DNA from: an uncultured Acidimicrobiales bacterium
GTDB taxonomy: Bacteria; Actinomycetota; Acidimicrobiia; Acidimicrobiales; CAVXTF01
Direction of reading: 5' to 3'
DNA: 64,000 nt
Assembly (NCBI GenBank): GCA_963764615.1
Contig: CAVXTF010000002.1
Coordinates: forward strand, 2,016,351-2,080,350
Positions 18,346 to 58,848 of the stretch are shown in pieces; within the stretch, counting starts at the first letter, position 1, and each line of letters begins with the position of its first letter. The notes under the pieces were generated by a model. That model did no database searches. It was not told where the DNA came from and was given only the letters and a program-made list of their open reading frames with translations. Position numbers and translations under genes: made by a program.

Positions 18346-18954
18346 CTAGGGACCGACGACGAGAGCCGTCTCCAGGAACGCAAGAATCTCGGACCGGCGC
18401 CGCACGAGCGACCGTGCGGTCGGCTCCTCGCCCAGAGCCTTCAGTACCTCCACCTCGGTCACCATGCCGACCACCATCGAGTAGATGGCGAGCAAGAGGA
18501 GCCTGGGCTCGTGCCTGCGCATGTGGCCAGCGGCCATCTCCGCTTCGAGGAACGCCGACGCCCGCTGGACGAGAGGATCGAGGGCCTCCACGAGTCGGGT
18601 GGCGGCCGGCGGGCCCAGCCGACTGACCTCGCGCAGAAGGCCGAGCAGCTCAGGCCGTCGGGCCGCCAATCGGAACACGGACCTGACCACCGCCTCGACT
18701 CTCGGCCAACCGGTGCCCGCGCGGTCCAACGATCTTTCGAGCGTGTCTCTGAGCTCCCCTGCCGAACGGTCGATGACGGCCTCGAGCAGGGCCTCTTTGG
18801 AGGGGAACCAGTACAGGATCGACTGTTTGCGCATCCCAAGGCCTTCGGCCAGAGCGTCTAGGGAGGTCGCTTCGTAGCCCCGCGAGGCGAAGGAGGCGAG
18901 AGACGCATCGAGGATGCGCTCCGAAGTGCTCGTGCCCTTGCTCGTGACAACCAC
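18346..18954 (-). CDS. TetR/AcrR family transcriptional regulator
   Basis: ERILDASLASFASRGYEATSLDALAEGLGMRKQSILYWFPSKEALL is the canonical TetR N-terminal HTH. Confidence 0.9.
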   Translation of the reverse strand: MVVTSKGTSTSERILDASLASFASRGYEATSLDALAEGLGMRKQSILYWFPSKEALLEAVIDRSAGELRDTLERSLDRAGTGWPRVEAVVRSVFRLAARRPELLGLLREVSRLGPPAATRLVEALDPLVQRASAFLEAEMAAGHMRRHEPRLLLLAIYSMVVGMVTEVEVLKALGEEPTARSLVRRRSEILAFLETALVVGP

Positions 18955-18992
18955 CTACCGAATGGTAGACGAATCTGCCTACCGTGTGGTAG
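18955..18992. promoter_or_regulatory. Two tandem palindromic operators CTACC-N4-GGTAG (probable TetR binding sites)
   Basis: CTACCGAATGGTAG lies at 18955-18968 and CTACCGTGTGGTAG at 18979-18992. They are followed by ACGAATCT and ACAAATCT respectively. Together they occupy most of the 47-bp divergent intergenic region. Confidence 0.6.
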
Positions 18993-19001
18993 ACAAATCT
19001 C

Positions 19002-21452
19002 GTGGGCGAGGTCTCTCCACCCGTATCGATCGCCGACGCCCTGTCGGGGCGGCAGATATTCGTGACCGGAGCCACCGGGTTCCTAGGCACGGCCCTGGTC
19101 GAACGATTGCTCAGATCGGTGCCCGGGTGCCGGGTGGCCGTGCTCGTCCGGCCGACGCGCCGTATGGCTGCAGAAGAGCGGGCCAAGCGCGAGATCGTCC
19201 GCAACGACTGTTTCGACCGCCTCCGGCAGGAGGCCGGCGAAGGCTTCGACCAGATGATCGCGAGCCGGCTGACTGCTGTAGCGGGCGATGTGTCGACAGA
19301 GGGCCTCGGGCTCGACGACGCCGGCGCAGAGGTGCTCGCCGCTTCTGACATCGTGGTCCACTCCGCGGCGGCCGTCGCGTTCGACGCGCCTCTCGACACG
19401 GCTGTCGAGGTGAACCTGCTCGGACCATCACGGGTTGCCGCAGCGATCCGTAACGCGGCCGAGCGTCGCGAAGAGGCACATCCCGGACGGCCTCCCACCC
19501 ACCTCATAACTGTTTCGACCGCCTACGTGGCAGGAACGCATCAGGGCTACGCCACCGAGACGCTTGCCACCGACGCGATGCGCTCCGGGGCCCGCGCCAG
19601 GACGCATACCACCGTCACGACCGAAGTCGACATCGACGCCGAGATCGCAGCTGCCAGGCGCCTGCGCGGAGATCTCGAAGCCGCGTCTCGCAGTCCCGGC
19701 AAGCTCACGAAATTCACGAAGCGAGCCAGGAGCGAGCTCGGAGGCGCCGGCACCCACCTGTTGGCTGAGCGCGCCGAGCGGTTGCGCGAGGAGTGGGTGC
19801 GTTCTGAGCTCGTCGAAGCGGGACGCGCCAGAGCACAGGCGCTCGGCTGGCCGGACGCTTACGCCTTCACCAAGGCGCTCGGCGAGCGGGTTCTCGTCAC
19901 CCGTTACCCGGATCTGCCGACGACCGTCGTGCGCCCTTCGATCATCGAGTCGGCACTCGCAGAGCCAAGGCCCGGTTGGATCAGGGGCTTCCGGATGGCC
20001 GAGCCGATCATCATCTCGTACGCGAGAGGGCTCCTTAAGGAGTTCCCCGGCATTCCCGAGGGCGTGACCGACGTGGTCCCCGTCGACATGGTCGCAGCCG
20101 CGATCATCGCTTGCGCGGCGGCGGGGCCCGACCCGGACAAGACGCGCGTCGTCCATGTCGCTTCAGGCGTCTGCAATCCCCTGCGCTACGGGCGCCTCGT
20201 CGAGCTGGTCCAGTCATGGTTCACGGACCATCCGATCTACGACAGCGACGGCCAGCCCATAGTCGTGCCGGACTGGTCCTTCCCCGGGCGCGGACGCGTC
20301 CAACGGCAGCTTGCGCGTGCCAACTTGGCGCTCGGCATCGCAGAGAGACTGCTCGGATCGCTACCGGTGCGAGGAGAGCGCGCCGACCTCGCTGCTCGCG
20401 TCGAAGAGCGTCGGGCTCTCGCCGAGCGCGCTCTCGGTTACGTCCAGCTGTACGGGGCGTACACCGAGACCGAGGCACTGTTCCGGGTCGACCGGCTGCT
20501 CGAGCTCTGGGACGCCTTGAGCGCCGAGGACCGCGAGCTGTTCTGCTTCGACCCGGGCGTCATCGACTGGGCCAGGTATGTGCACGAGATCCACCTTCCT
20601 TCGGTGATCGAGCACGCACGTGTTCGCACGACCTCCACGCGGTCACGCATGGCCGGGCGTTCCGAGCGGGCATCTCGTGCGATCCTGTCACCTGAGCGCC
20701 ACCTTGCCGCGTTCGACCTGGAGAACACCCTCGTCGCCTCGAACGTCGTCGAGTCCTACGCATGGCTCGCAACCCGTCACCTCCCCCTCGCCGACCGGGC
20801 CCGGGTGACCGCGAGGATCTTGCGCCAGGCCCCAGGTCTCCTGGCACTGGACCGTCGGGACCGGGGAGACTTCCTGCGCAGCTTCTACCGCCACTACGAG
20901 GGCGCACCGCAGGAGCTTCTGCAACAAGACTCCAAGGAGCTGTTCCACGACCTGTTGCTCACGCGATCCTTCCCTGCGGGGATCGCCCGCGTCAGGCGCC
21001 ACAAGGCGCTCGGGCACCGCACCGTTCTCATAACGGGCGCTCTCGATTTCGTGGTCGAGCCGATGAGACCCCTGTTCGACGAGGTCGTCTGCGCCCGGCT
21101 CGCCAGCGACGCCGACGGGCTCCTCACGGGTCGCCTCGACAAGCTGCCACCGACCGGTGAAGCGCGCGCCCTCATCCTCGCCGAGTACGCCGCAGCGGAA
21201 GGCCTTGATCTCGGGGAGTCGATCGCCTACGCCGACTCGGCATCGGACCTGCCGCTTTTGGAATGCGTTGGATTCCCCGTCGCGGTCAACCCCGAAGCGA
21301 AGCTCGCCGCCATCGCCCGGCGCAGGGGCTGGCACACGGAGCACTGGGCATCCGCCGGCAGCGGGTCGCGCCCGTTGCTGCCTATGGGCCCAATGGACGC
21401 CGGGGCCTCGCGTTGGTGGGAGCGGATCGACATAACGAGAAGTGTGCGATGA
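19002..21452 (+). CDS. Fatty acyl-CoA/ACP reductase (NAD_binding_4 SDR) fused to HAD-IB family hydrolase
   Basis: The N-terminus has IFVTGATGFLGTALVERLL and YAFTK (YxxxK). The C-terminal half has LAAFDLENTLVASNVVESY.. and ..YADSASDLPLLECVGFPVAVNP, the HAD-IB motifs. Motif I reads D-x-E rather than D-x-D. Confidence 0.9.
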   Translation: MGEVSPPVSIADALSGRQIFVTGATGFLGTALVERLLRSVPGCRVAVLVRPTRRMAAEERAKREIVRNDCFDRLRQEAGEGFDQMIASRLTAVAGDVSTEGLGLDDAGAEVLAASDIVVHSAAAVAFDAPLDTAVEVNLLGPSRVAAAIRNAAERREEAHPGRPPTHLITVSTAYVAGTHQGYATETLATDAMRSGARARTHTTVTTEVDIDAEIAAARRLRGDLEAASRSPGKLTKFTKRARSELGGAGTHLLAERAERLREEWVRSELVEAGRARAQALGWPDAYAFTKALGERVLVTRYPDLPTTVVRPSIIESALAEPRPGWIRGFRMAEPIIISYARGLLKEFPGIPEGVTDVVPVDMVAAAIIACAAAGPDPDKTRVVHVASGVCNPLRYGRLVELVQSWFTDHPIYDSDGQPIVVPDWSFPGRGRVQRQLARANLALGIAERLLGSLPVRGERADLAARVEERRALAERALGYVQLYGAYTETEALFRVDRLLELWDALSAEDRELFCFDPGVIDWARYVHEIHLPSVIEHARVRTTSTRSRMAGRSERASRAILSPERHLAAFDLENTLVASNVVESYAWLATRHLPLADRARVTARILRQAPGLLALDRRDRGDFLRSFYRHYEGAPQELLQQDSKELFHDLLLTRSFPAGIARVRRHKALGHRTVLITGALDFVVEPMRPLFDEVVCARLASDADGLLTGRLDKLPPTGEARALILAEYAAAEGLDLGESIAYADSASDLPLLECVGFPVAVNPEAKLAAIARRRGWHTEHWASAGSGSRPLLPMGPMDAGASRWWERIDITRSVR

Positions 21453-22738
21453 AGGCACTCTTGCTCGAGCGCAGCGTGGCCAGATTCGCAGCGGCGCGTG
21501 TGGTGTCCACGATCTCCGGCTCGGGCAGCGCGGCGCGCGTCGGCCCGCTTCGACTGGTCGACGCAGAGGCCCCCGAACTGCCGGGACCCGGCTGGCACCG
21601 GGTCGACGTGCTACTGGCCGGGATATGCGGCTCTGACCTCGCCACTCTCGACGGCCGGAGCTCGCGGTACTTCGAGGATCTCGTCAGCTTCCCCTTCGTT
21701 CCGGGTCACGAGATTCTGGGTGTCGTATCGGACGAGGGAGACGGTCCGCACCGCGTCGTTGTCGAGCCGGCGATCGGCTGCGTGGCTCGCTCGATCTCAC
21801 CTCCGTGCCCTCCGTGTGCCGAGGGACGGACCGGTGGATGTGAGCGTGTGGCGTTCGGCCACATCTCCGCCGGGCTGCAGATCGGATACTGCGCCGACAC
21901 AGGTGGCGGGTGGTCCTCGTCCGGCCTGGTCGCGCACGAATCGCAACTGCACCCTGTTCCGGACGCCATGACAGACGAAGACGCAGTAATGGTCGAGCCC
22001 GCCTCGTGCGCGATACATGCCGCTATGGCTGCAGAGGCCGATACGGACTGCGTGGTCGCCGTGCTCGGTGCGGGCACGCTCGGACTCGCCACGATCGCTG
22101 CCCTGCGTTCGCTCACTCCCCCTGGCACCCTTATCGCGGCCGCGCGCTACCCGCACCAGAGACGGCTCGCCACGCAGCTCGGTGCCGACGTATCGGTGCG
22201 GGATGACGAGCTCGCACGCGCCGTGCGCAGGCGGACGCGCTCTTTGGAGACGAGCGCGGGCCTCACCGCGGGAGCCGACGCCGTCGTGGACTGTGTCGGC
22301 TCCGCCGATTCGCTCGCTCAGGCGCTCGCTGTCGTGAAACCGAGGGGCCGGGTGGTCCTGGCGGGCATGCCGGGGACTATCTCTTTCGACCTCGCCGGTC
22401 TCTGGCACCGCGAGGTCGCCCTCGTCGGCGCATATGCATACGGGATCGAGCATCCTGCCACAGGCGGATCCCCCCGGACGTTCGATCTCGCCTTCGACAT
22501 GGTCCGAGGCGCCGGGCTCGGACGCCTCGTCTCGGCCACGTACCCGCTCGAACGCTTCGAAGAGGCGATCGCGCATGCCGGAGCGGCGGGCAGGCGCGGT
22601 GCCGTGAAGATCGCATTCGACATGCGCAACACGCGCCGCGACCGCTGGCGACGCGCAGGTCAGATCGCGACCGAACGCGTCGTGACAAACGGACAGGGCG
22701 CACACCCGACCGACAACGAGAAAGGACAGCCTCAATGA
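21449..22738 (+). CDS. Zinc-dependent alcohol dehydrogenase (MDR family)
   Basis: MKALLLER.., GICGSD, PGHE, the structural-Zn cluster CPPCAEGRTGGC, and a GAGTLG Rossmann motif are present. The ATG at 21449 overlaps the upstream TGA (ATGA). Confidence 0.85.
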   Translation: MKALLLERSVARFAAARVVSTISGSGSAARVGPLRLVDAEAPELPGPGWHRVDVLLAGICGSDLATLDGRSSRYFEDLVSFPFVPGHEILGVVSDEGDGPHRVVVEPAIGCVARSISPPCPPCAEGRTGGCERVAFGHISAGLQIGYCADTGGGWSSSGLVAHESQLHPVPDAMTDEDAVMVEPASCAIHAAMAAEADTDCVVAVLGAGTLGLATIAALRSLTPPGTLIAAARYPHQRRLATQLGADVSVRDDELARAVRRRTRSLETSAGLTAGADAVVDCVGSADSLAQALAVVKPRGRVVLAGMPGTISFDLAGLWHREVALVGAYAYGIEHPATGGSPRTFDLAFDMVRGAGLGRLVSATYPLERFEEAIAHAGAAGRRGAVKIAFDMRNTRRDRWRRAGQIATERVVTNGQGAHPTDNEKGQPQ

Positions 22739-24327
22739 GCCCGAGGCCGGGTTTCGTGCTGGACGTCGACCGTTCCACCCCTCCGACGCTCTTCTGGCAC
22801 GGAGAGGGCTACCGCCTCGAGAGCTTGCCCGCAGACCGCAGCCGGGTGGTCTACGCGCCCGAGCCGCTGGAGGGCCTCGGCGATCCGGTGACAGCGATCC
22901 GCAACGCGCTCGAGCAGCCCGTAGGCGATTCGGCGCCTCTGTCCGAGCTGCTGTTCGCGGGAATGAAGCTCACCATCGCGTTCGACGACATATCGCTGCC
23001 GCTCCCCCCGATGCAACGTCCCGACGTGCGGGAGCTCGTCATCGAGCAGGTGCTCGACATGGCGGCCGCTGCCGGTGTCGACGACGTGGTCCTCGTCGCC
23101 GCGCTCGCGCTGCACCGCAGGATGACCGAGGCCGAGCTCCGCCATGCCCTCGGAGACCGGATCTACGACGCTTTTGCACCGGAGGGCCTTCTCACCCAGC
23201 ACGACGCCGAGGACCCGGACAACCTGATCCACCTGGGCGCCACGGAGCTGGGCGAGGACGTGGAGCTGAACAAGCGCGCAGCCACCTCCGACCTGCTCGT
23301 CTACGTGAACATCAATCTCGTCGCGATGGACGGAGGCCACAAAAGCGTCGCGACGGGCCTGGCGAGCTACCGGAGCCTGCGACACCACCACAATGCCCGC
23401 ACGATGCAGGCATCGCGCAGCTTCATGGATCAGCACCGATCCGAACTGCACTCATCGAACTGGCGAATGGGCAGACTCATCGCGGAGTCGGGCGTGAAGA
23501 TCTTCCAGATCGAGACGACCCTGAACACCAACACCTTTCCTGACCAATTCCGCTTCCTGCAACGCCGCGAATGGGAATGGACGCTTTCGGACAGGGCCGC
23601 CTTCGCGACTTCGTCCGCCGCACTGCGTCGCGCGCCCGCGCGCCTCGCCCGCCAGGTGATGCACTCCGTGCGTGCACCACAGCGCATGACGTCGGTGCAG
23701 GCAGGCGAGGTCGAAGCAGTTCACAAGCTGACCACAGACAACGTGTATGCGCAGCAGCTCGTCGTCGTAGAGGGACAGACCGATGTGCTCACGATGGGAC
23801 TTCCGTACATCTGCCCGTACAACGTGAACTCGATCATGAATCCCATTCTCGTCGCATGCCTCGGTCTCGGGTACTTCTTCAATCTCTACCGGGGCGGACG
23901 ACCCTTGGTGCGCGAGGGCGGCGTCCTCATCGTTTCGCACCCGACGCCCTGGGCGTTCCACCCGGGCCATCATCCGAGCTACATCGACTTCTTCGAAGAA
24001 GTGCTCTCGGAGTCCACCGATCCTGTCGAGATCGAGCGATACGAGCAGGCTTACGCGACAGACCCGTGGTACGTCCACCTGTACCGGACGGGCAATGCGT
24101 ACCACGGGGTGCATCCGTTCTACATGTGGTACTGGTGCGCCCACGCCTTGCAGCACCTCGGCGGCGTCATCGTCGTCGGAGGCGACCGCCAGGCCGTGCG
24201 CCGGCTCGGTTTCAAACCGGCGTCGACCCTCGCCGACGCGCTCGAGATGGCCGAGGACGTCGTTGGACGCGAGCCCACGATCACCCACCTGCACGCCCCG
24301 CCCATCCTGCTCGCGGAAGTCCAATGA
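22735..24327 (+). CDS. LarA-like (lactate racemase N-terminal, DUF2088) domain protein
   Basis: KLTIAFDDISLPLP..VVLVAALALHRRMTEAELRHALG..QHDAEDPDNLIHLGATELGEDVELN..DGGHKSV matches the LarA N-domain layout. It has ATGA overlaps at both ends. Confidence 0.75.
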   Translation: MSPRPGFVLDVDRSTPPTLFWHGEGYRLESLPADRSRVVYAPEPLEGLGDPVTAIRNALEQPVGDSAPLSELLFAGMKLTIAFDDISLPLPPMQRPDVRELVIEQVLDMAAAAGVDDVVLVAALALHRRMTEAELRHALGDRIYDAFAPEGLLTQHDAEDPDNLIHLGATELGEDVELNKRAATSDLLVYVNINLVAMDGGHKSVATGLASYRSLRHHHNARTMQASRSFMDQHRSELHSSNWRMGRLIAESGVKIFQIETTLNTNTFPDQFRFLQRREWEWTLSDRAAFATSSAALRRAPARLARQVMHSVRAPQRMTSVQAGEVEAVHKLTTDNVYAQQLVVVEGQTDVLTMGLPYICPYNVNSIMNPILVACLGLGYFFNLYRGGRPLVREGGVLIVSHPTPWAFHPGHHPSYIDFFEEVLSESTDPVEIERYEQAYATDPWYVHLYRTGNAYHGVHPFYMWYWCAHALQHLGGVIVVGGDRQAVRRLGFKPASTLADALEMAEDVVGREPTITHLHAPPILLAEVQ

Positions 24328-25286
24328 GCCCACCTGACCCCGCAGGAGCGTTCCACGCGCTTGCTCGCAGGTACAGGTCGCTCGGGCTGCCGTGGCGGCA
24401 GCCGGAATGGCCGGGGGGAATCGACCGCGACGCACCGGAACGCGATCTCGGCGTGGACTACGACACCGCCTGGGCACGCAGATACCCCGTGCGCCTTGCA
24501 CGAGCCGTCGTCGTCGACAACGTCACCCGCCCGCTCGCACATTGGGTCGCGTCCCCTGAAGTGCGCGGCGACGAGCTTCTGTCCCTTGCGGAGGCCCCCG
24601 TCATCCTTGTGGCAAACCACACGAGCCATCTCGACACAGCGCTGCTCGTGTCGGTGCTGCCGAAGCGCCTGCGGCACTCCACGATCGTCGCGGGTGCCGC
24701 GGACTACTTCTTCGACCGCCGCTGGAAGGCGCACATGTGGGCATTCCTGACGGCGGCCATCCCCATCGAACGCCAGAAGGTAAACCGCAAGTCTGCTGAC
24801 CTCGCAGCTGAGATGTTGGAGGGGGGATGGAACCTGCTCATCTACCCGGAAGGGGGCCGGAGTCCCGACGGTTGGATGCAGACGTTCCGCCCTGGTGCCG
24901 CATACCTTGCTGTACGCACAGGCAGGCCCGTCGTTCCAGTGCATCTGGATGGCACGTTCAGGGTCATGGCGCGCGGCGGGAGCCGCATAAGCCGGTCACC
25001 CACGACCGTCACATTCGGCCTGCCCATCAGCCCCGTACCCGGCGAAGATGCGCGCAGCTTTGGCCGTCGCATAGAAGAGGCGGTTCACCTGCTCGCGAGC
25101 GAGCGCACCACCGATTGGTGGACGGCACGCAAGCTCGCTGCTCGAGGCCTGCCGTCGGGCGCCGGCGGTCCCGCCGGCGCGGCGTGGCGACGCTCCTGGG
25201 CGTTGGGGCCCTCGTCGCGCGAAAAGGGCATGCACGATGCGCGCGAGTGGGCTCTCGACCCCGACCGGGTGAAGCGCACTTCCTGA
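24324..25286 (+). CDS. Lysophospholipid / 1-acyl-sn-glycerol-3-phosphate acyltransferase family protein (PlsC-like)
   Basis: NHTSHLD (the HX4D motif), YPEGGRS and PVVPVHL acyltransferase motifs are present. The ATG at 24324 overlaps the upstream stop. Confidence 0.85.
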   Translation: MSPPDPAGAFHALARRYRSLGLPWRQPEWPGGIDRDAPERDLGVDYDTAWARRYPVRLARAVVVDNVTRPLAHWVASPEVRGDELLSLAEAPVILVANHTSHLDTALLVSVLPKRLRHSTIVAGAADYFFDRRWKAHMWAFLTAAIPIERQKVNRKSADLAAEMLEGGWNLLIYPEGGRSPDGWMQTFRPGAAYLAVRTGRPVVPVHLDGTFRVMARGGSRISRSPTTVTFGLPISPVPGEDARSFGRRIEEAVHLLASERTTDWWTARKLAARGLPSGAGGPAGAAWRRSWALGPSSREKGMHDAREWALDPDRVKRTS

Positions 25287-45678: not shown

Positions 45679-46353
45679 TCACCTGCGGTGCAGCGAGGCG
45701 ATCTGCTCCATGTCGAGCAGCGCGAACTCTCCTTCAGCTTCGACGGTGACCTGACCGTTCTGCACGAGGCGGCCCGACGTGTGGACGCGCCTCTGTGCCC
45801 GTTCGTCGACCCATGCCTCGAACAAGCACTCGGTCCCGAGCAGAGTCGGGCGACGGAACCGCAGAGCGAGGCGGACAGTCGGGCCCGCAGCCCCTGCGAC
45901 CATGTTGGCGGCGGTGAGCACGATGTCGAAAGCCCCGGCGATGCTCGCTCCGTGCACGCATCCCGGGGCGCCTTCGTAGGGGGTGGTGAACACCGCTCGC
46001 CCGAGTGCGCGGGGCGGGTCGATCTCGAGCCTGACGGGCAGCGCCAGCGGGTTGTACCGCCCGACCACGACGTCGAACGGCATCGAGGACTCGACCTCGC
46101 TCCCGTCCGCGGGCACCGCCGGGTCGCGGCCCATGAAGCGTGGGAACGGGACCGAAGGCAGTCCTCCCTCGAGGCGGTCGGCGAGCGCATTCAGGTCCGA
46201 CGCAACCTCGGCCAGGACCTCTGCGGGGACCGCCGTGGTCACCGCCAACACGACAAGGCGCCTCAGAGCGTCAGAGACGGATCCGAGCTCCACCTCTCTC
46301 CCGGAGATGGCCGGGTGCCTGCGAGATGATTTCGCCTCGGCCATCCTCACCAC
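45679..46353 (-). CDS. PaaI-family (hotdog fold) thioesterase
   Basis: YEGAPGCVHGASIAGAFDIVL..RFRRPTLLGTECLFEAWV..GRLVQNGQVTVEAEGEF is present. Confidence 0.8.
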   Translation of the reverse strand: MVRMAEAKSSRRHPAISGREVELGSVSDALRRLVVLAVTTAVPAEVLAEVASDLNALADRLEGGLPSVPFPRFMGRDPAVPADGSEVESSMPFDVVVGRYNPLALPVRLEIDPPRALGRAVFTTPYEGAPGCVHGASIAGAFDIVLTAANMVAGAAGPTVRLALRFRRPTLLGTECLFEAWVDERAQRRVHTSGRLVQNGQVTVEAEGEFALLDMEQIASLHRR

Positions 46354-48349: not shown

Positions 48350-49579
48350 GTGAAGGCACTTCTCTACGGGACGAAACCTGAGCCTTGGACGTCGCCGGAT
48401 CCGACCAACCGCTTGCTGGCTGGCCTCGCGCAGGTCCCCATGCGGTTGATAGACACAGACGCCCCGGCAACGACGCGTCCTGGTTGGCTGGTGCTCAGGA
48501 CCCGAATGACGGGCATATGCGGGTCGGACGCCAAACAGGTCTTCATGGACTTCGGTGAGGGCCTCGCAGACAGCGCTCTGAACGGGCTCTTCAGCTTCCC
48601 CACTGTTCTCGGCCACGAAGTCGTCGCCGACGTCGTCGAGCTCGGCCCGGGCTCGACGGGGCCCGAGCCCGGCACACGCGTCGTCCTCAACCCCTGGCTC
48701 TCGTGTGTACCTCGTGGAATCGACCCGATCTGCGGCTCGTGCCAGGCAGGAGACTTCAGCCTGTGCTGGCATTTCACGGATGGCGAGCTCGCACCCGGCA
48801 TCCACACGGGAACCTGCCGGGACGCTCCGGGTGGCTTCGCCGAGCTTCTGCCGGCTCACGAGACGATGGTCCACCGCGTCCCTGAAGGTGTCCCCGACGA
48901 GCTAGCGGTCCTCGCCGATCCGTTCTCGGTGTCGCTGCACTCGGTCACGAGGCATCCGCCGCCGCCCACGGGCCGGGCCCTCGTCTACGGAGCGGGCGCG
49001 CTCGGGACGACCGCCACCGCCATCCTGCGCGCTCTTCATCCCGAGGTCGAAGTCGGCGTGGTGGCCGGTCACCGAACGCAGGCTGAGCTCGCCAACAAGC
49101 TCGGCGCCACCGTATTCGCGCACGAGCCGGTCGACGCGCTCATAGACGACGTGGCGTCATGGTCGGGCGGAAGGTTGAGGCGTACAGAAGGCGTTCTTCC
49201 GATGGCACATCCGGGTGGGATAGACGTCGTCTACGACACGATAGGAACGGCGACTAGCTCCGAGGTCGCGGTGCGGCTTCTCGCACAGCGCGGGACGCTC
49301 GTAAAGAGCGGGGTCAACGCTCCCGAGCGTTGGGAGTGGTCCCCGCTCTATTTCAAGGAGATCTCATGGGTGGGATCGAATGCTTTCGGGATGGAGACCG
49401 TTGACGGCGTCCGCAAGCATGCGATCGCTCATTACCTCGACATGGTCGACGACGGGAGAGTCGACCTGAACGGCATGCTGACCCACACGTTCTCCCTGGA
49501 CCAGTGGCGATCCGCGTTTACCGCCCTTGCAACGCAGGACGATTCCGGTGCCATAAAGGTGGCGTTCGACTTCCGCTGA
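48350..49579 (+). CDS. Zinc-dependent alcohol dehydrogenase family protein
   Basis: GICGSDAKQ, GHE, CGSCQAGDFSLC and GAGALG are present. Confidence 0.85.
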   Translation: MKALLYGTKPEPWTSPDPTNRLLAGLAQVPMRLIDTDAPATTRPGWLVLRTRMTGICGSDAKQVFMDFGEGLADSALNGLFSFPTVLGHEVVADVVELGPGSTGPEPGTRVVLNPWLSCVPRGIDPICGSCQAGDFSLCWHFTDGELAPGIHTGTCRDAPGGFAELLPAHETMVHRVPEGVPDELAVLADPFSVSLHSVTRHPPPPTGRALVYGAGALGTTATAILRALHPEVEVGVVAGHRTQAELANKLGATVFAHEPVDALIDDVASWSGGRLRRTEGVLPMAHPGGIDVVYDTIGTATSSEVAVRLLAQRGTLVKSGVNAPERWEWSPLYFKEISWVGSNAFGMETVDGVRKHAIAHYLDMVDDGRVDLNGMLTHTFSLDQWRSAFTALATQDDSGAIKVAFDFR

Positions 49580-56015: not shown

Positions 56016-57545
56016 CTACCTGCGGACCGGAGCGTCCGGCAGGGGTTCGGGGGCGGGCGGCCCCGCGTAAAGCGCTGCAGGCCGGATCAGGCGATTGTCC
56101 GACGCCTGTTCGAGAACATGCGCGGACCAACCGACCGTCCTTGCTGCTGCGAAAGTGGGCGTGAACATCTCGGGGGCGATCCCGCACGCGTTCATGACCA
56201 CGCCCGCGTAGAACTCGACGTTCGTGCACAGCTCCCGCTCGGGCTTGAGCTCGGCGAGCAGCCGGATGGCTGTGGACTCGGTGTGAGCGGCGAGCTCGAA
56301 CAACGGGGCTCCGAGCGACTCCGCCACTCCGCGCAGGAACGCAGACCTGGGATCTTCGGTCCTGTAGACCCGGTGCCCGAAGCCCATGATCCTGTCCCCG
56401 CGCTCGATCGCTGTTCGCAGGTAGCCCCCGGCGCGATCGGCGGTCCGGATCTCGCTGAGCATGTCGAGTGCCCGACTCGGGGCGCCCCCATGGAGTGGGC
56501 CTGAGAGGGCCCCGATGGCACCGCACTGCGCCGCAGCGAGGTCGGCGCCTGTCGAGACGATCACGCGCGCCGCGAACGTCGAGGCGTTGAAGCCGTGATC
56601 GACGGTGAGGATCATGTACTGCTCGATAGCCCTCGCGTGAGCTACGTCGGGCTCTTTCCCGTTCAACATCCACAAATAGTTCGCTGCGTGCCCGAGGTCA
56701 TCGCGCGGACTGACGGGGTCGAGTCCCGCCCTTAGGCGAAATGTCGCCGCAAGCAGAGTCGGCACGACCGATCCGAGCTGCAGAGCCTGGGACCGCAACG
56801 TGTCGAGGTCGATGTCGTGGGTCGGCTGCCAGGAGAGCTCGGCACCGAGCAACGAGATCGAAGTGCGCAACACCTCGAGAGGGCTGCCCTTGCCTGCGAT
56901 CGCCGGCAGGATCCGCGCCACGCCGTCGGGAATCTGCCTGAGAAGCCTGACAGCGTGTGAAAACTCGTTGGACTCAGCGTCGCCGGGAAGCGAGCCTTCG
57001 AGCAGAAGTTGCCAGACGTCTTCGAACGATCGATGGGCGGCCAGGTCGATCGCCGAGTACTGCCGGTAGTGGTAGAAGCCTTCGCGCCCACGTACATCCC
57101 CGACAGCCGTCTCGGCCACCACGACGCCTTCGAGGCCGCGCGGCACCTCGATCCCGACCTCTGTTGCGGGCCTGAGACGCGCCACCCTGATCAGATCCCT
57201 GAGCGAGACGACGCCGAGCAATTCGTCACCTTCGACGACAGGAAGATGCCGGTAGTGGTGGTGCGTCAAGCTCGCCCACGCTGCTCCAGCCTCTTCGTCC
57301 GGCCCGAGAACGTCGGGCCCCGCGGTCATCCACAGACGGGTGGGCTCACGGCGGGGCTCGGCTCCCGCTGCCGCCGCCCTGAGCAGGTCGCGCTCGGTGA
57401 GGATGCCGATGACCTTCGACCTATCCGTCACCACGACAGATCCCGTAAGCGCCTCGGCCATCGTCCGGGCCGCGTCTGACAACGAAGCTTCCGCACCGCA
57501 GGTCACGGCCGGGCTCGACATCAGGTCCCTGACCAACGTCGCCAT
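56016..57545 (-). CDS. CBS-pair domain fused to citrate (or 2-methylcitrate) synthase
   Basis: The N-terminus has two CBS motifs (VRDLMSSPAVTC..VVVTDRSKVIGILTERDLL; HLPVVEGDELLGVVSLRDLI). A citrate synthase core follows: DHGFNASTF, GPLHGGA, GFGHRVYRTEDPR and NVEFYAG. Confidence 0.9.
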   Translation of the reverse strand: MATLVRDLMSSPAVTCGAEASLSDAARTMAEALTGSVVVTDRSKVIGILTERDLLRAAAAGAEPRREPTRLWMTAGPDVLGPDEEAGAAWASLTHHHYRHLPVVEGDELLGVVSLRDLIRVARLRPATEVGIEVPRGLEGVVVAETAVGDVRGREGFYHYRQYSAIDLAAHRSFEDVWQLLLEGSLPGDAESNEFSHAVRLLRQIPDGVARILPAIAGKGSPLEVLRTSISLLGAELSWQPTHDIDLDTLRSQALQLGSVVPTLLAATFRLRAGLDPVSPRDDLGHAANYLWMLNGKEPDVAHARAIEQYMILTVDHGFNASTFAARVIVSTGADLAAAQCGAIGALSGPLHGGAPSRALDMLSEIRTADRAGGYLRTAIERGDRIMGFGHRVYRTEDPRSAFLRGVAESLGAPLFELAAHTESTAIRLLAELKPERELCTNVEFYAGVVMNACGIAPEMFTPTFAAARTVGWSAHVLEQASDNRLIRPAALYAGPPAPEPLPDAPVRR

Positions 57546-57678
57546 CTGTCGAGCCCCCTTTCGTGCGAACCGGCTGTCGCCAACCTCCTCATATTGAACG
57601 CCTAGGTTTCGAATGTAAATATTGATCTAGTCAATGTGGCCTTGTTCGCTCTCAACTAGGCTCGCTGTCTTGGCGCGG

Positions 57679-58848
57679 ATGCTCGAAAGCGAAGAGGCGG
57701 CACGACGGCTCGGGATCAAACTCGCCACCCTCTACGCCTACGTGAGTAGAGGTCTGCTTCCCTCCTACCCGACCAGCGATTCCCGTAGGAGCCTGTTCGA
57801 CCTCGACGACGTCGAACGCCTCGCACGGCGATCCCGAGCCGGGCGCCGCGTGGAGACAAGACTGGCCTCTGTCACGACCGCTGTGACACAGCTGCGCGAG
57901 GACGGTCCTGCCTATCGAGGGAGGCCGGTAGCCGACCTCGCACGGACGGAGACCTTCGAGTCGGTCGCCAACCTGCTCTTCGAGGCAACCTCTGGACCGG
58001 ATCAGGGCTGGCAACCCGTGCGACTGCCCCGACCGCCCTTGATGGCAGCCTCAGGGCGTCTGTGCTGGGCGGTCATGATGTGCGGGGCCCGCGATCCGCT
58101 GCGTTCAGACCTCCGCACCGAGGCCGTCGTCAGAAACGCAAGGAAGGTCATAGCGACGGCCGTCGAGTCCCTTCGAGACTCAGTGCGACCGGCCGCTGGC
58201 ACGGAACGAGCTCACCGCCGTCCCGAAGCCATCGCACAACGGCTGGGTCAATGCCTGACCGCGCAACCTTCACCTGCGATCGTCCGGGCTATGGACACCG
58301 CCCTCGTCGTCCTCGCCGACCACGAGCTCGCCACTTCCACCATGGCGGTCCGCATCGCCGCCTCCACCCGAGCAGACGTCTACGACGGGTTGCTGGCGGG
58401 GCTCTGCACGCTCGCCGGTCCCTTGCACGGCGGTGCCAGTGAGCTTGCGCACGCTCTGTTGATGCAAGCGGAGCGCACCGGCGTCGAGCCGGCTCTCGAT
58501 TCGACGTTGCGCTGGCAGAAAGCGCTACCCGGGTTCGGCCATCCCTTGTACAGCAGAGGCGATCCGAGGTTCGACATCCTCATGTCGAGAGTCAGCGAAA
58601 TCGCCACGCCTGAGCAACGCCAGATCTTGAGCACGCTCGTCGGGCTGGCACGAGCCCATGCAGTGCCGGAACCGAACGTCGACCTCGCCCTTGCGGCCCT
58701 CACTTGGGTAACCAATGCACCCGCCGACGCGGGTCGCACGATCTTCAGTGTCGCGCGTCTCGCCGGATGGACCGCTCACTACATCGAAGAGCTGAGCGAA
58801 AGACCCCTGCGATTCAGAGCCAGGGCCGTCTACGCATCCAACCACTGA
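57679..58848 (+). CDS. HTH (excisionase/MerR-like) domain fused to citrate synthase-like domain
   Basis: The HTH is MLESEEAARRLGIKLATLYAYVSRGLLP. The citrate-synthase-like core is ADHELATST, GPLHGGAS, GFGHPLYSRGDPR, PNVDLA and ARLAGWTAH. Confidence 0.85.
   Translation: MLESEEAARRLGIKLATLYAYVSRGLLPSYPTSDSRRSLFDLDDVERLARRSRAGRRVETRLASVTTAVTQLREDGPAYRGRPVADLARTETFESVANLLFEATSGPDQGWQPVRLPRPPLMAASGRLCWAVMMCGARDPLRSDLRTEAVVRNARKVIATAVESLRDSVRPAAGTERAHRRPEAIAQRLGQCLTAQPSPAIVRAMDTALVVLADHELATSTMAVRIAASTRADVYDGLLAGLCTLAGPLHGGASELAHALLMQAERTGVEPALDSTLRWQKALPGFGHPLYSRGDPRFDILMSRVSEIATPEQRQILSTLVGLARAHAVPEPNVDLALAALTWVTNAPADAGRTIFSVARLAGWTAHYIEELSERPLRFRARAVYASNH

Follow-up and report, generated by a model that had tools for sequence, protein, structure and literature searches.

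A TetR-flanked FAR-HAD / Zn-MDR / LarA-like / PlsC operon of an uncultured Acidimicrobiales bacterium and its relationship to the myxobacterial elb ether-lipid cluster

In Myxococcus xanthus, ether lipids depend on the operon elbA-E (MXAN_1531-1527, PMC13012113; MIBiG BGC0000871; Lorenzen 2014 as reviewed in PMC9131029). In the present study this operon was compared with a TetR-flanked operon of four genes, one of them encoding a LarA-like protein, located in a 64-kb stretch of contig CAVXTF010000002.1 of an uncultured Acidimicrobiales bacterium (the whole stretch analysed, with a GC content of ~65%, is referred to as the window). In M. xanthus, ElbA and ElbE are NAD-dependent epimerase/dehydratases and ElbB a HAD-like phosphohydrolase, the function of ElbC is given as not known, and ElbD combines a domain similar to fatty acyl-CoA/acyl carrier protein reductases (FAR) with acyl-CoA synthetase (ACS), acyl carrier protein (ACP) and acylglycerolphosphate acyltransferase (AGPAT) domains (PMC9131029). 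Disruption of elbD abolished alkyl and vinyl ether lipids and inactivation of elbE reduced the ether lipids; fatty aldehyde was present in the wild type and absent in elbD mutants, and no elbD-dependent fatty alcohol was reported (PMC9131029). How fatty acid becomes alkyl ether is not known according to the same review of 2022, in which ElbC is drawn as a domain of unknown function with a '?', and the figure legend of a paper of 2026 assigns no function to ElbC (PMC13012113).

Relationship of the operon to the elb cluster

The operon encodes a fusion of a FAR domain and a HAD-IB phosphatase-like domain, a zinc-dependent medium-chain dehydrogenase/reductase (Zn-MDR), the LarA-like protein and a PlsC/AGPAT-type acyltransferase (Table 1). 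It is very probably a true Elb-type cluster, a reading supported by the much higher scores of its HAD domain and acyltransferase against ElbB and ElbD than against their paralogues in the window. The HAD domain was 37% identical to ElbB (120 bits, E = 1e-36), with only 55 bits against the window's own paralogue, and the acyltransferase matched residues 1326-1518 of ElbD (36% identity, 93 bits, E = 3e-24), with only 35 bits against its paralogue. The FAR domain was aligned with residues 28-598 of the ElbD of Anaeromyxobacter over 594 columns (32% identity, E = 5e-61).

The LarA-like protein corresponds to ElbC. In Anaeromyxobacter oryzae (locus L081), genes for a short-chain dehydrogenase/reductase (SDR), a HAD protein of 225 aa, a Lar_N protein of 537 aa, a multidomain protein of 1593 aa (NAD_binding_4, Sterile, AMP-binding, PP-binding and Acyltransferase) and a second SDR follow one another on a single strand. 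The same layout, including the Lar_N gene at the elbC position, was found in two further loci (L090 and L091); on a Myxococcaceae-like contig with this layout the multidomain protein has 1478 aa. As this is the layout described for M. xanthus elbA-B-C-D-E, ElbC is identified as a protein of group LarAH15. The LarA-like protein of the window was 47% identical to the product of the elbC-position gene of A. oryzae over 523 columns, that is, over its full length (476 bits).

HAD, LarA-like, FAR and AGPAT components, each with detectable homology, are thus common to the operon and to M. xanthus elbA-E; both have an extra NAD(P)-dependent reductase and neither has an alkylglycerone phosphate synthase (AGPS). 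On the other hand, FAR is fused to ACS-ACP-AGPAT in M. xanthus and to HAD in the window, where the acyltransferase is a separate gene and acyl-CoA synthetase and carrier-protein domains are lacking, no AMP-binding or PP-binding domain having been found in the five operon-region proteins or the flanking genes. The accessory reductase also differs, being an SDR (ElbA/ElbE) in M. xanthus. No SDR was found in the operon, in which Zn-MDR occupies that place, and Zn-MDR had no counterpart among the Elb proteins of A. oryzae and no similarity to ElbA or ElbE. In addition, only the operon of the window, of the two, has a TetR gene and a predicted operator.

With the AGPS-dependent pathway of eukaryotes and of MXAN_1676 (FAR1, GNPAT, AGPS and acyl/alkyl-dihydroxyacetone phosphate reductase), the operon has in common the logic of reducing a fatty acyl group and of employing an HX4D acyltransferase together with a keto-reductase. 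However, it has no FAD-dependent alkyl-dihydroxyacetone phosphate (alkyl-DHAP) synthase, and that pathway contains no equivalent of the LarA-like and HAD proteins. An ether-lipid pathway of AGPS type was ruled out, since no AGPS or FAD-oxidase domain protein was found in the operon or among the ~45 window genes scanned.

Rubrobacter radiotolerans (CP007514.1) shares the FAR-HAD fusion, Zn-MDR and the LarAH14 orthologue in identical order, although its acyltransferase is an upstream PlsY (PF02660) and not a downstream PlsC, and no TetR is present. The abstract of a study of 2023 on Rubrobacterales lipids is said to report a putative 1-O-alkylglycerol phosphate operon like that of other aerobic ether-lipid producers. 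That mixed ether/ester lipids dominate the membranes of Rubrobacterales is reported in the title of Sinninghe Damste 2023 (cited in PMC11150832 and PMC11181052). The co-occurrence of the block and these membranes in Rubrobacter is correlative and favours an ether-lipid reading.

To assess the conservation of the block, a profile scan based on an alignment of groups 14 and 15 was carried out with one genome per species. The best 80 loci all belonged to Acidimicrobiales; other phyla were reached through contigs encoding individual matches and not through the profile scan. Counts for each gene were limited to loci having enough sequence (58, 60 or 80). FAR and HAD were located upstream of the LarA-like gene in all 60 loci, Zn-MDR belonged to the block in 57/60, a PlsC-type gene followed the LarA-like gene in 80/80 and a divergent TetR orthologue was present in 37/58. 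This synteny is well above chance, and the four-gene block supposed in the original prediction (a note made from the DNA letters of the window) does co-occur in related genomes. A further locus (L088) also carries it. The operons of L071, L074 and L080 have no Zn-MDR, which is therefore an accessory member of the cluster; L071, from a complete chromosome, has a three-gene FAR-HAD / LarAH / PlsC operon with neither Zn-MDR nor TetR nearby. Conservation within the block is highest for the LarA-like gene (identities of 70-82%, median 77%); the medians of the other genes are 55-68%.

The linkage of FAR, HAD, LarA-like protein and glycerolipid acyltransferase is maintained in both Actinomycetota and Myxococcota, and the keto-reductase-type enzyme is an exchangeable accessory, SDR in myxobacteria and Zn-MDR in actinobacteria. 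HAD and LarAH form the tightest gene pair, adjacent in three loci (L083-L085) although elbD lies elsewhere. Part of this neighbourhood has been tabulated before: among the neighbours of LarAH group 14, COG0204 acyltransferase, COG0560 HAD phosphatase and COG1063 Zn-dependent alcohol dehydrogenase reach 88% each and COG3320 thioester reductase 50%, AGPAT and HAD are also found beside group 16, and the neighbours of the myxobacterial group 15 are SDRs, a long-chain acyl-CoA synthetase and a phosphatase (Desguin 2020 Table S1, PMC7583248). The synteny of group 14 is thus already published, in a supplement only and without interpretation.

According to the original prediction, no characterised pathway has this composition. 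This does not hold, as myxobacterial elbA-E has the same core of HAD, LarA-like, FAR and AGPAT components (PMC9131029); ElbD had been rightly cited as a relative, but the identity of ElbC as a LarA-like protein was overlooked. The description of a lipid operon with an ether-lipid reading is in accordance with the homologies to ElbB, ElbC and ElbD, and the lack of an AGPS or FAD-oxidase gene in the operon and among the window genes scanned agrees with the placing of the LarA-like protein in the slot left unexplained.

The individual enzymes retain their catalytic motifs: GxTGFLG (GATGFLG in the window), STxYV (VSTAYV) and YxxTK in FAR; GICGSDL, GHE, the Cys-rich loop and GAGTLG in Zn-MDR; LHRR, DGGHK and HHHN in LarAH; and NHxSHxD and [FY]PEGGR[ST], kept in the 80 loci, in PlsC. 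To judge from this conservation, the catalytic motifs of the operon enzymes are under selection. All the motifs that had been pointed out beforehand (GATGFLG, YAFTK, D-L-E, DGGHK and NHTSHLD) were found, conserved in 59-80 orthologues. The HAD domain scored above the cutoff of TIGR01490 (105.8 against 98.3 bits), and its motif I, FDLE[NH]TL, was invariant, with the nucleophile Asp and a Glu at +2 in the 64/64 orthologues aligned there. This motif reads D-V-D in ElbB and D-L-E in the operon. Enolase-phosphatase E1 likewise has D-x-E. Decay of the HAD domain, which might be read from D-L-E, was ruled out, since the motif is invariant across the Acidimicrobiales orthologues and thus a fixed trait of the lineage. 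The best NCBIfam matches of Zn-MDR were idonate, inosose, threonine and galactitol-1-P dehydrogenases, all far under their cutoffs.

At a distance of 5 kb on the downstream side of the operon, a HAD-IB domain and a PlsC-type acyltransferase are fused in a 527-aa protein, which is a paralogue of the operon HAD and acyltransferase but is further from ElbB and ElbD than those are.

The LarA-like protein and its predicted active site

The LarA-like protein matched NCBIfam NF052592 ('NPN-dependent hydroxyacid isomerase, LarAH14/15/16 family', NPN being the nickel-pincer nucleotide) over the whole profile (1-520/520), with 866.5 bits against a cutoff of 740. The names of these groups were given by Desguin 2020 (PMC7583248), and group 14 includes Acidimicrobium Afer_1430, Ilumatobacter YM304_22240, Frankia Franean1_4168 and Rubrobacter Rxyl_2107, which were 57-71% identical to the window protein. 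At 50% identity the LarAH family comprised 429 clusters with E <= 1e-30. A search for Rosetta-stone fusions among the 50%-identity representatives gave nothing informative, only a LarAH-acyltransferase read-through fragment (P0444) and P0419. The latter is a gene model of 947 aa that joins a LarAH14-like sequence (36% identical, E = 3e-86) to a chlorophyll a/b-binding domain, and it could represent either a copy from a eukaryotic alga or an error of gene calling.

The AlphaFold2 model (pLDDT 81, pTM 0.85) had the LarA fold, with TM scores of 0.6-0.8 against LarA structures in Foldseek; the best matches were 9q3k/9q3j, single-His LarA-like enzymes (TM 0.74/0.81). The nearest solved structures in a profile search were LarASp/LarABw (9q2u, 9q3k and 9q3j), with E = 1e-49 across both domains. 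D85, H127, K203 and H219 aligned with Asp72, His108, Lys184 (the NPN tether) and His200 (a Ni ligand) of Lactiplantibacillus plantarum LarA. Among these, H127, K203 and H219 were nearly invariant in the window protein and its 80 relatives, D85 was also invariant or almost so, and Y362, H457 and H460 were invariant between groups 14 and 15. In the profile alignment, an invariant Asn194 is located at the position of the second catalytic His (His174) and an invariant Leu88 at that of the carboxylate-binding Arg75. Group 14 has a gap at Gln295 and an Asn at Lys298 (Desguin 2020 Dataset S2, PMC7583248).

The placement of Asn194 at His174 in our alignment disagrees with the same Dataset S2, which has a gap, not Asn, at this position for groups 14 and 15 (PMC7583248). 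If our alignment is correct, both groups would fall in the His-to-Asn single-histidine class described in 2025 (group 17). LarASp and LarABw, of group 17 (PMC12611868), share with the window protein a length of ~500 aa, one catalytic His, the Asn at the His174 position, the NPN-tethering Lys and the Ni-ligand His. Tyr307, His398 and His401 of LarASp, part of the new active-site set (PMC12611868), correspond to Tyr362, His457 and His460 of the window protein, whereas His306 is replaced by Pro361 and Lys76, at the Arg75 position, by Leu88, and the identity is only ~20-23%. The genomic context of LarASp and LarABw is glycolytic/triose-phosphate and not lipid, and a phosphorylated linear sugar was speculatively modelled as the ligand in their structures (PMC12611868).

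The retention of the NPN-binding residues and one catalytic His predicts a cofactor pocket with a single acid/base residue. Since the second His and the carboxylate-binding Arg are lost, the protein is, by its predicted active site, not a 2-hydroxyacid racemase.

Operon layout, regulator and other features of the window

The features of the operon, of the Rubrobacter blocks and of the rest of the window are detailed in Table 1. Open reading frame (ORF) calls and Pfam/NCBIfam searches bore out the five-gene layout previously proposed, and the ATGA stop/start overlaps that couple the four genes of the (+) strand are exactly at the positions given for them (21449-21452, 22735-22738 and 24324-24327). 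A dual operator behind the divergent TetR gene was also recovered: the 47 bp that separate the start codons of TetR and FAR are occupied by a direct repeat of 23 nt, each copy with CTACC-N4-GGTAG. In the window this motif occurs only in the two operator copies (4 strand-hits against 0.26 expected), and none of 100 shuffled sequences reached 4 strand-hits. The exact motif was present in the TetR-FAR intergenic region of 15/38 related loci, with one occurrence elsewhere in those loci. A helix-turn-helix (HTH) domain and a palindromic site between divergent genes are both present, as expected for a candidate TetR repressor and its operator. As a description of the block, 'TetR-gated' fits no more than about two thirds of the relatives.

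The divergent GTG starts, 18954 (-) and 19002 (+), directly flank the operator repeats. As they leave no space for a leader or a Shine-Dalgarno sequence, the TetR and FAR-HAD mRNAs probably have no leader, unless the true starts lie further in. The operon is flanked by an amidase gene upstream and by a two-component system and GatD/MurT downstream; these genes are unrelated to it, so the unit consists of TetR and the four genes.

Table 1. Coordinates of the operon, of related Rubrobacter blocks and of other features of the window.
Feature	Position	Strand	Evidence or remarks
TetR-family regulator, 202 aa	18346-18954	(-)	TetR_N E = 8e-14 + TetR_C_24; divergent from operon
Two tandem operator-like sites	CTACCGAATGGTAG 18955-18968; CTACCGTGTGGTAG 18979-18992		23-nt direct repeat
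FAR-HAD fusion gene, 816 aa	19002-21452	(+)	Pfam NAD_binding_4 + Sterile + HAD
FAR domain (fatty acyl-CoA/ACP reductase), homologue of ElbD N-terminus	19002-20636	(+)	PF07993 E = 5e-56 + PF03015
HAD-IB phosphatase-like domain of the same fusion, ElbB homologue	20667-21452	(+)	PF12710 E = 1e-25
Zn-MDR dehydrogenase, polyol/threonine-dehydrogenase type, 429 aa	21449-22738	(+)	ADH_N + ADH_zinc_N
LarA-like protein, group LarAH14, 530 aa	22735-24327	(+)	Lar_N E = 2e-38; ElbC orthologue
PlsC/AGPAT-type acyltransferase, 320 aa	24324-25286	(+)	PF01553 E = 2e-21; homologue of ElbD C-terminal domain
Rubrobacter radiotolerans block	L086 5841-11581		PlsY / FAR-HAD (752 aa) / Zn-ADH / LarAH
Rubrobacter block, close relative	L087 4554-11578		upstream PlsY as in L086; two unrelated genes (protoglobin + MarR) inserted before LarAH
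HAD-IB + PlsC-type acyltransferase fusion, 527 aa	30037-31620	(-)	paralogue of operon HAD/acyltransferase
Radical-SAM + luciferase-like monooxygenase fusion, 634 aa	46347-48251	(-)	unusual fusion
4HBT thioesterase-like gene	45679-46353	(-)	adjoins the radical-SAM fusion
Second Zn-MDR	48350-49579	(+)	adjoins the radical-SAM fusion; 31% identical to operon Zn-MDR
ORF of 2034 aa	7471-13575	(-)	14 Big_3_5 Ig-like repeats + TIG domain
Divergent citrate-synthase-domain pair	56016-58848		two genes, below
Citrate-synthase-domain gene	56016-57545	(-)	two CBS domains
Citrate-synthase-domain gene	57634-58848	(+)	MerR-type HTH

Among the other features of the window, the product of the 2034-aa ORF is probably a giant surface protein.

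Proposed pathway and alternative readings

The operon is rather likely to make alkylglycerol ether lipids in this organism and would then represent the Acidimicrobiales form of the Elb-type, AGPS-independent 1-O-alkylglycerol pathway, split into separate genes under a predicted TetR repressor; the split form FAR-HAD / Zn-MDR / LarAH is shared with Rubrobacter. More tentatively, and with less likelihood than not attached to this step, the LarA-like protein (ElbC / LarAH14-15) might form the ether bond itself, using NPN as an internal hydride shuttle. Reduction of acyl-CoA or acyl-ACP by the FAR domain would yield a fatty aldehyde or alcohol. In the LarA-like enzyme, NPN would take a hydride from the C2 hydroxyl of an intermediate derived from glycerol phosphate, with His127 as the base, and would thereby, through a transient 2-keto species, activate this intermediate so that a C-O bond to the product of FAR can form. 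After that, the hydride could return to C2, or to an oxocarbenium formed from an aldehyde-glycerol hemiacetal, the product being 1-O-alkyl-DHAP or 1-O-alkyl-glycerol 3-phosphate (1-O-alkyl-G3P); the hemiacetal route would give 1-O-alkyl-DHAP and would be redox-neutral. Zn-MDR (in myxobacteria, the SDRs ElbE/ElbA) would reduce the 2-keto intermediate, the acyltransferase would acylate the glycerol backbone, the HAD domain would strip the phosphate from an intermediate, and TetR would leave its operator upon binding of a lipid or acyl-CoA ligand. The order of these steps and the substrate of every enzyme are only what we infer. The scheme employs every component and fits the single catalytic His, the lost carboxylate-binding residues, the elbD-dependent aldehyde and the phosphorylated ligand speculatively modelled in the nearest solved relatives.

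Several data weigh against this pathway or against the role given in it to the LarA-like protein. Frankia LarAH14, supplemented with NPN, was inactive in seven hydroxyacid racemase/epimerase reactions, a panel that did not include ether-related substrates (Desguin 2020, PMC7583248). No larB, larC or larE was found by Pfam among the ~45 window genes scanned, nor within 8-10 kb in the annotated related loci. In group 16 (Frankia alni and Microlunatus), the AGPAT/HAD neighbours are retained although Lys184, and in some cases His108, is gone (PMC7583248), so that NPN catalysis may be dispensable in some lineages. LarAH15 is solitary in two myxobacterial loci (L082 and L089), so the clustering is not universal. 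Pontiella has elbD homologues yet no detected ether lipids, no elbC mutant is reported in the accessible literature, and no report of ether lipids in Acidimicrobiia was found in the searchable literature.

The product might instead be a non-ether lipid with an unusual backbone or head group (polyol-phosphate, diol or amino-alcohol) or a neutral lipid derived from fatty alcohol, with the LarA-like protein and Zn-MDR isomerising or oxidising a small phosphorylated polyol that HAD would dephosphorylate. The polyol, threonine and galactitol-1-P dehydrogenases nearest to Zn-MDR, the glycolytic/triose-phosphate setting and modelled sugar-phosphate ligand of the nearest solved LarA relatives, and the tight HAD-LarAH pair all speak for such a lipid. 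We consider it improbable, given that genetics connects the homologous elb operon with ether lipids, that some operons do without Zn-MDR but none without FAR, and that Rubrobacter has the block and makes ether lipids. Slightly less probable still is a formation of ether lipids by reduction of a pre-formed ester, with a Ger-like logic and no condensation of aldehyde or alcohol: 1-acyl-G3P would be supplied by the acyltransferase, and the FAR-like reductase together with the LarA-like shuttle would turn the sn-1 ester, via a hemiacetal, into the ether. An acyltransferase is always in the cluster, that of Rubrobacter being a PlsY, which produces 1-acyl-G3P, and the hemiacetal carbon is a plausible donor or acceptor of hydride for NPN. 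To our knowledge, however, enzymes of the FAR family reduce thioesters, and reduction of oxygen esters by them is not established; the fusion of the ElbD FAR to ACS and ACP likewise indicates a thioester substrate, and free fatty aldehyde depends on elbD. Some authors do describe ElbD as an ester-to-ether reducer (PMC13023045).

Two further alternatives concern the LarA-like protein alone. It is very unlikely to be a non-catalytic scaffold or lipid-binding subunit of a FAR/acyltransferase complex devoid of nickel cofactor. The losses in group 16, with AGPAT/HAD neighbours kept, and the lack of lar maturation genes near any examined locus would suit such a role, but H127, K203 and H219 are nearly invariant, Y362, H457 and H460 do not vary between groups 14 and 15, and no other protein of the block is so conserved. 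Even less credible is the view that the protein is simply co-transcribed with lipid genes and acts as an ordinary NPN-dependent 2-hydroxyacid racemase/epimerase, as could be supposed from the Lar_N domain, the LarA fold and the NCBIfam name. This candidate was rejected on the basis of the missing active-site residues (Asn194 in place of the second catalytic His, Leu88 in place of Arg75, which binds carboxylate/phosphate, and the absence of Q295 and K298 in group 14) and of the negative published assays; the linkage to HAD, FAR and acyltransferase across Actinomycetota and Myxococcota also stands against it.

With regard to the Elb-type pathway, the formation of the alkyl ether bond through the elb genes in aerobic bacteria has been an open question since 2014. 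ElbC and its actinobacterial orthologues, as predicted single-histidine nickel-pincer LarA-like proteins, offer a concrete candidate for the ether-forming step. The Elb-type cluster itself and the group 14 neighbourhood were already known, and the operon adds an Acidimicrobiales member to the former. No explicit statement of a link between ElbC and LarA was found in the searchable literature, which leaves out most subscription journals. If the proposal is true, the protein would be the first LarA-family enzyme other than a racemase/epimerase, and bacterial ether-lipid synthesis would be nickel-dependent.

Metagenomic screens for producers of ether lipids and brGDGTs (branched glycerol dialkyl glycerol tetraethers) query full-length ElbD (PMC13023045). 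An amplicon sequence variant of Microtrichaceae (Acidimicrobiia) was correlated with brGDGTs, and this family was scored as lacking ElbD by BLAST with the full-length protein (PMC13023045, Table 1). Split clusters such as that of the window may escape ElbD-based environmental screens, and the LarA-like gene, with 70-82% identity across Acidimicrobiales, is a much better conserved marker. Many of the related loci come from metagenome-assembled genomes of peat, bog, permafrost-palsa and soil, habitats in which the sources of non-isoprenoid ether lipids are debated.

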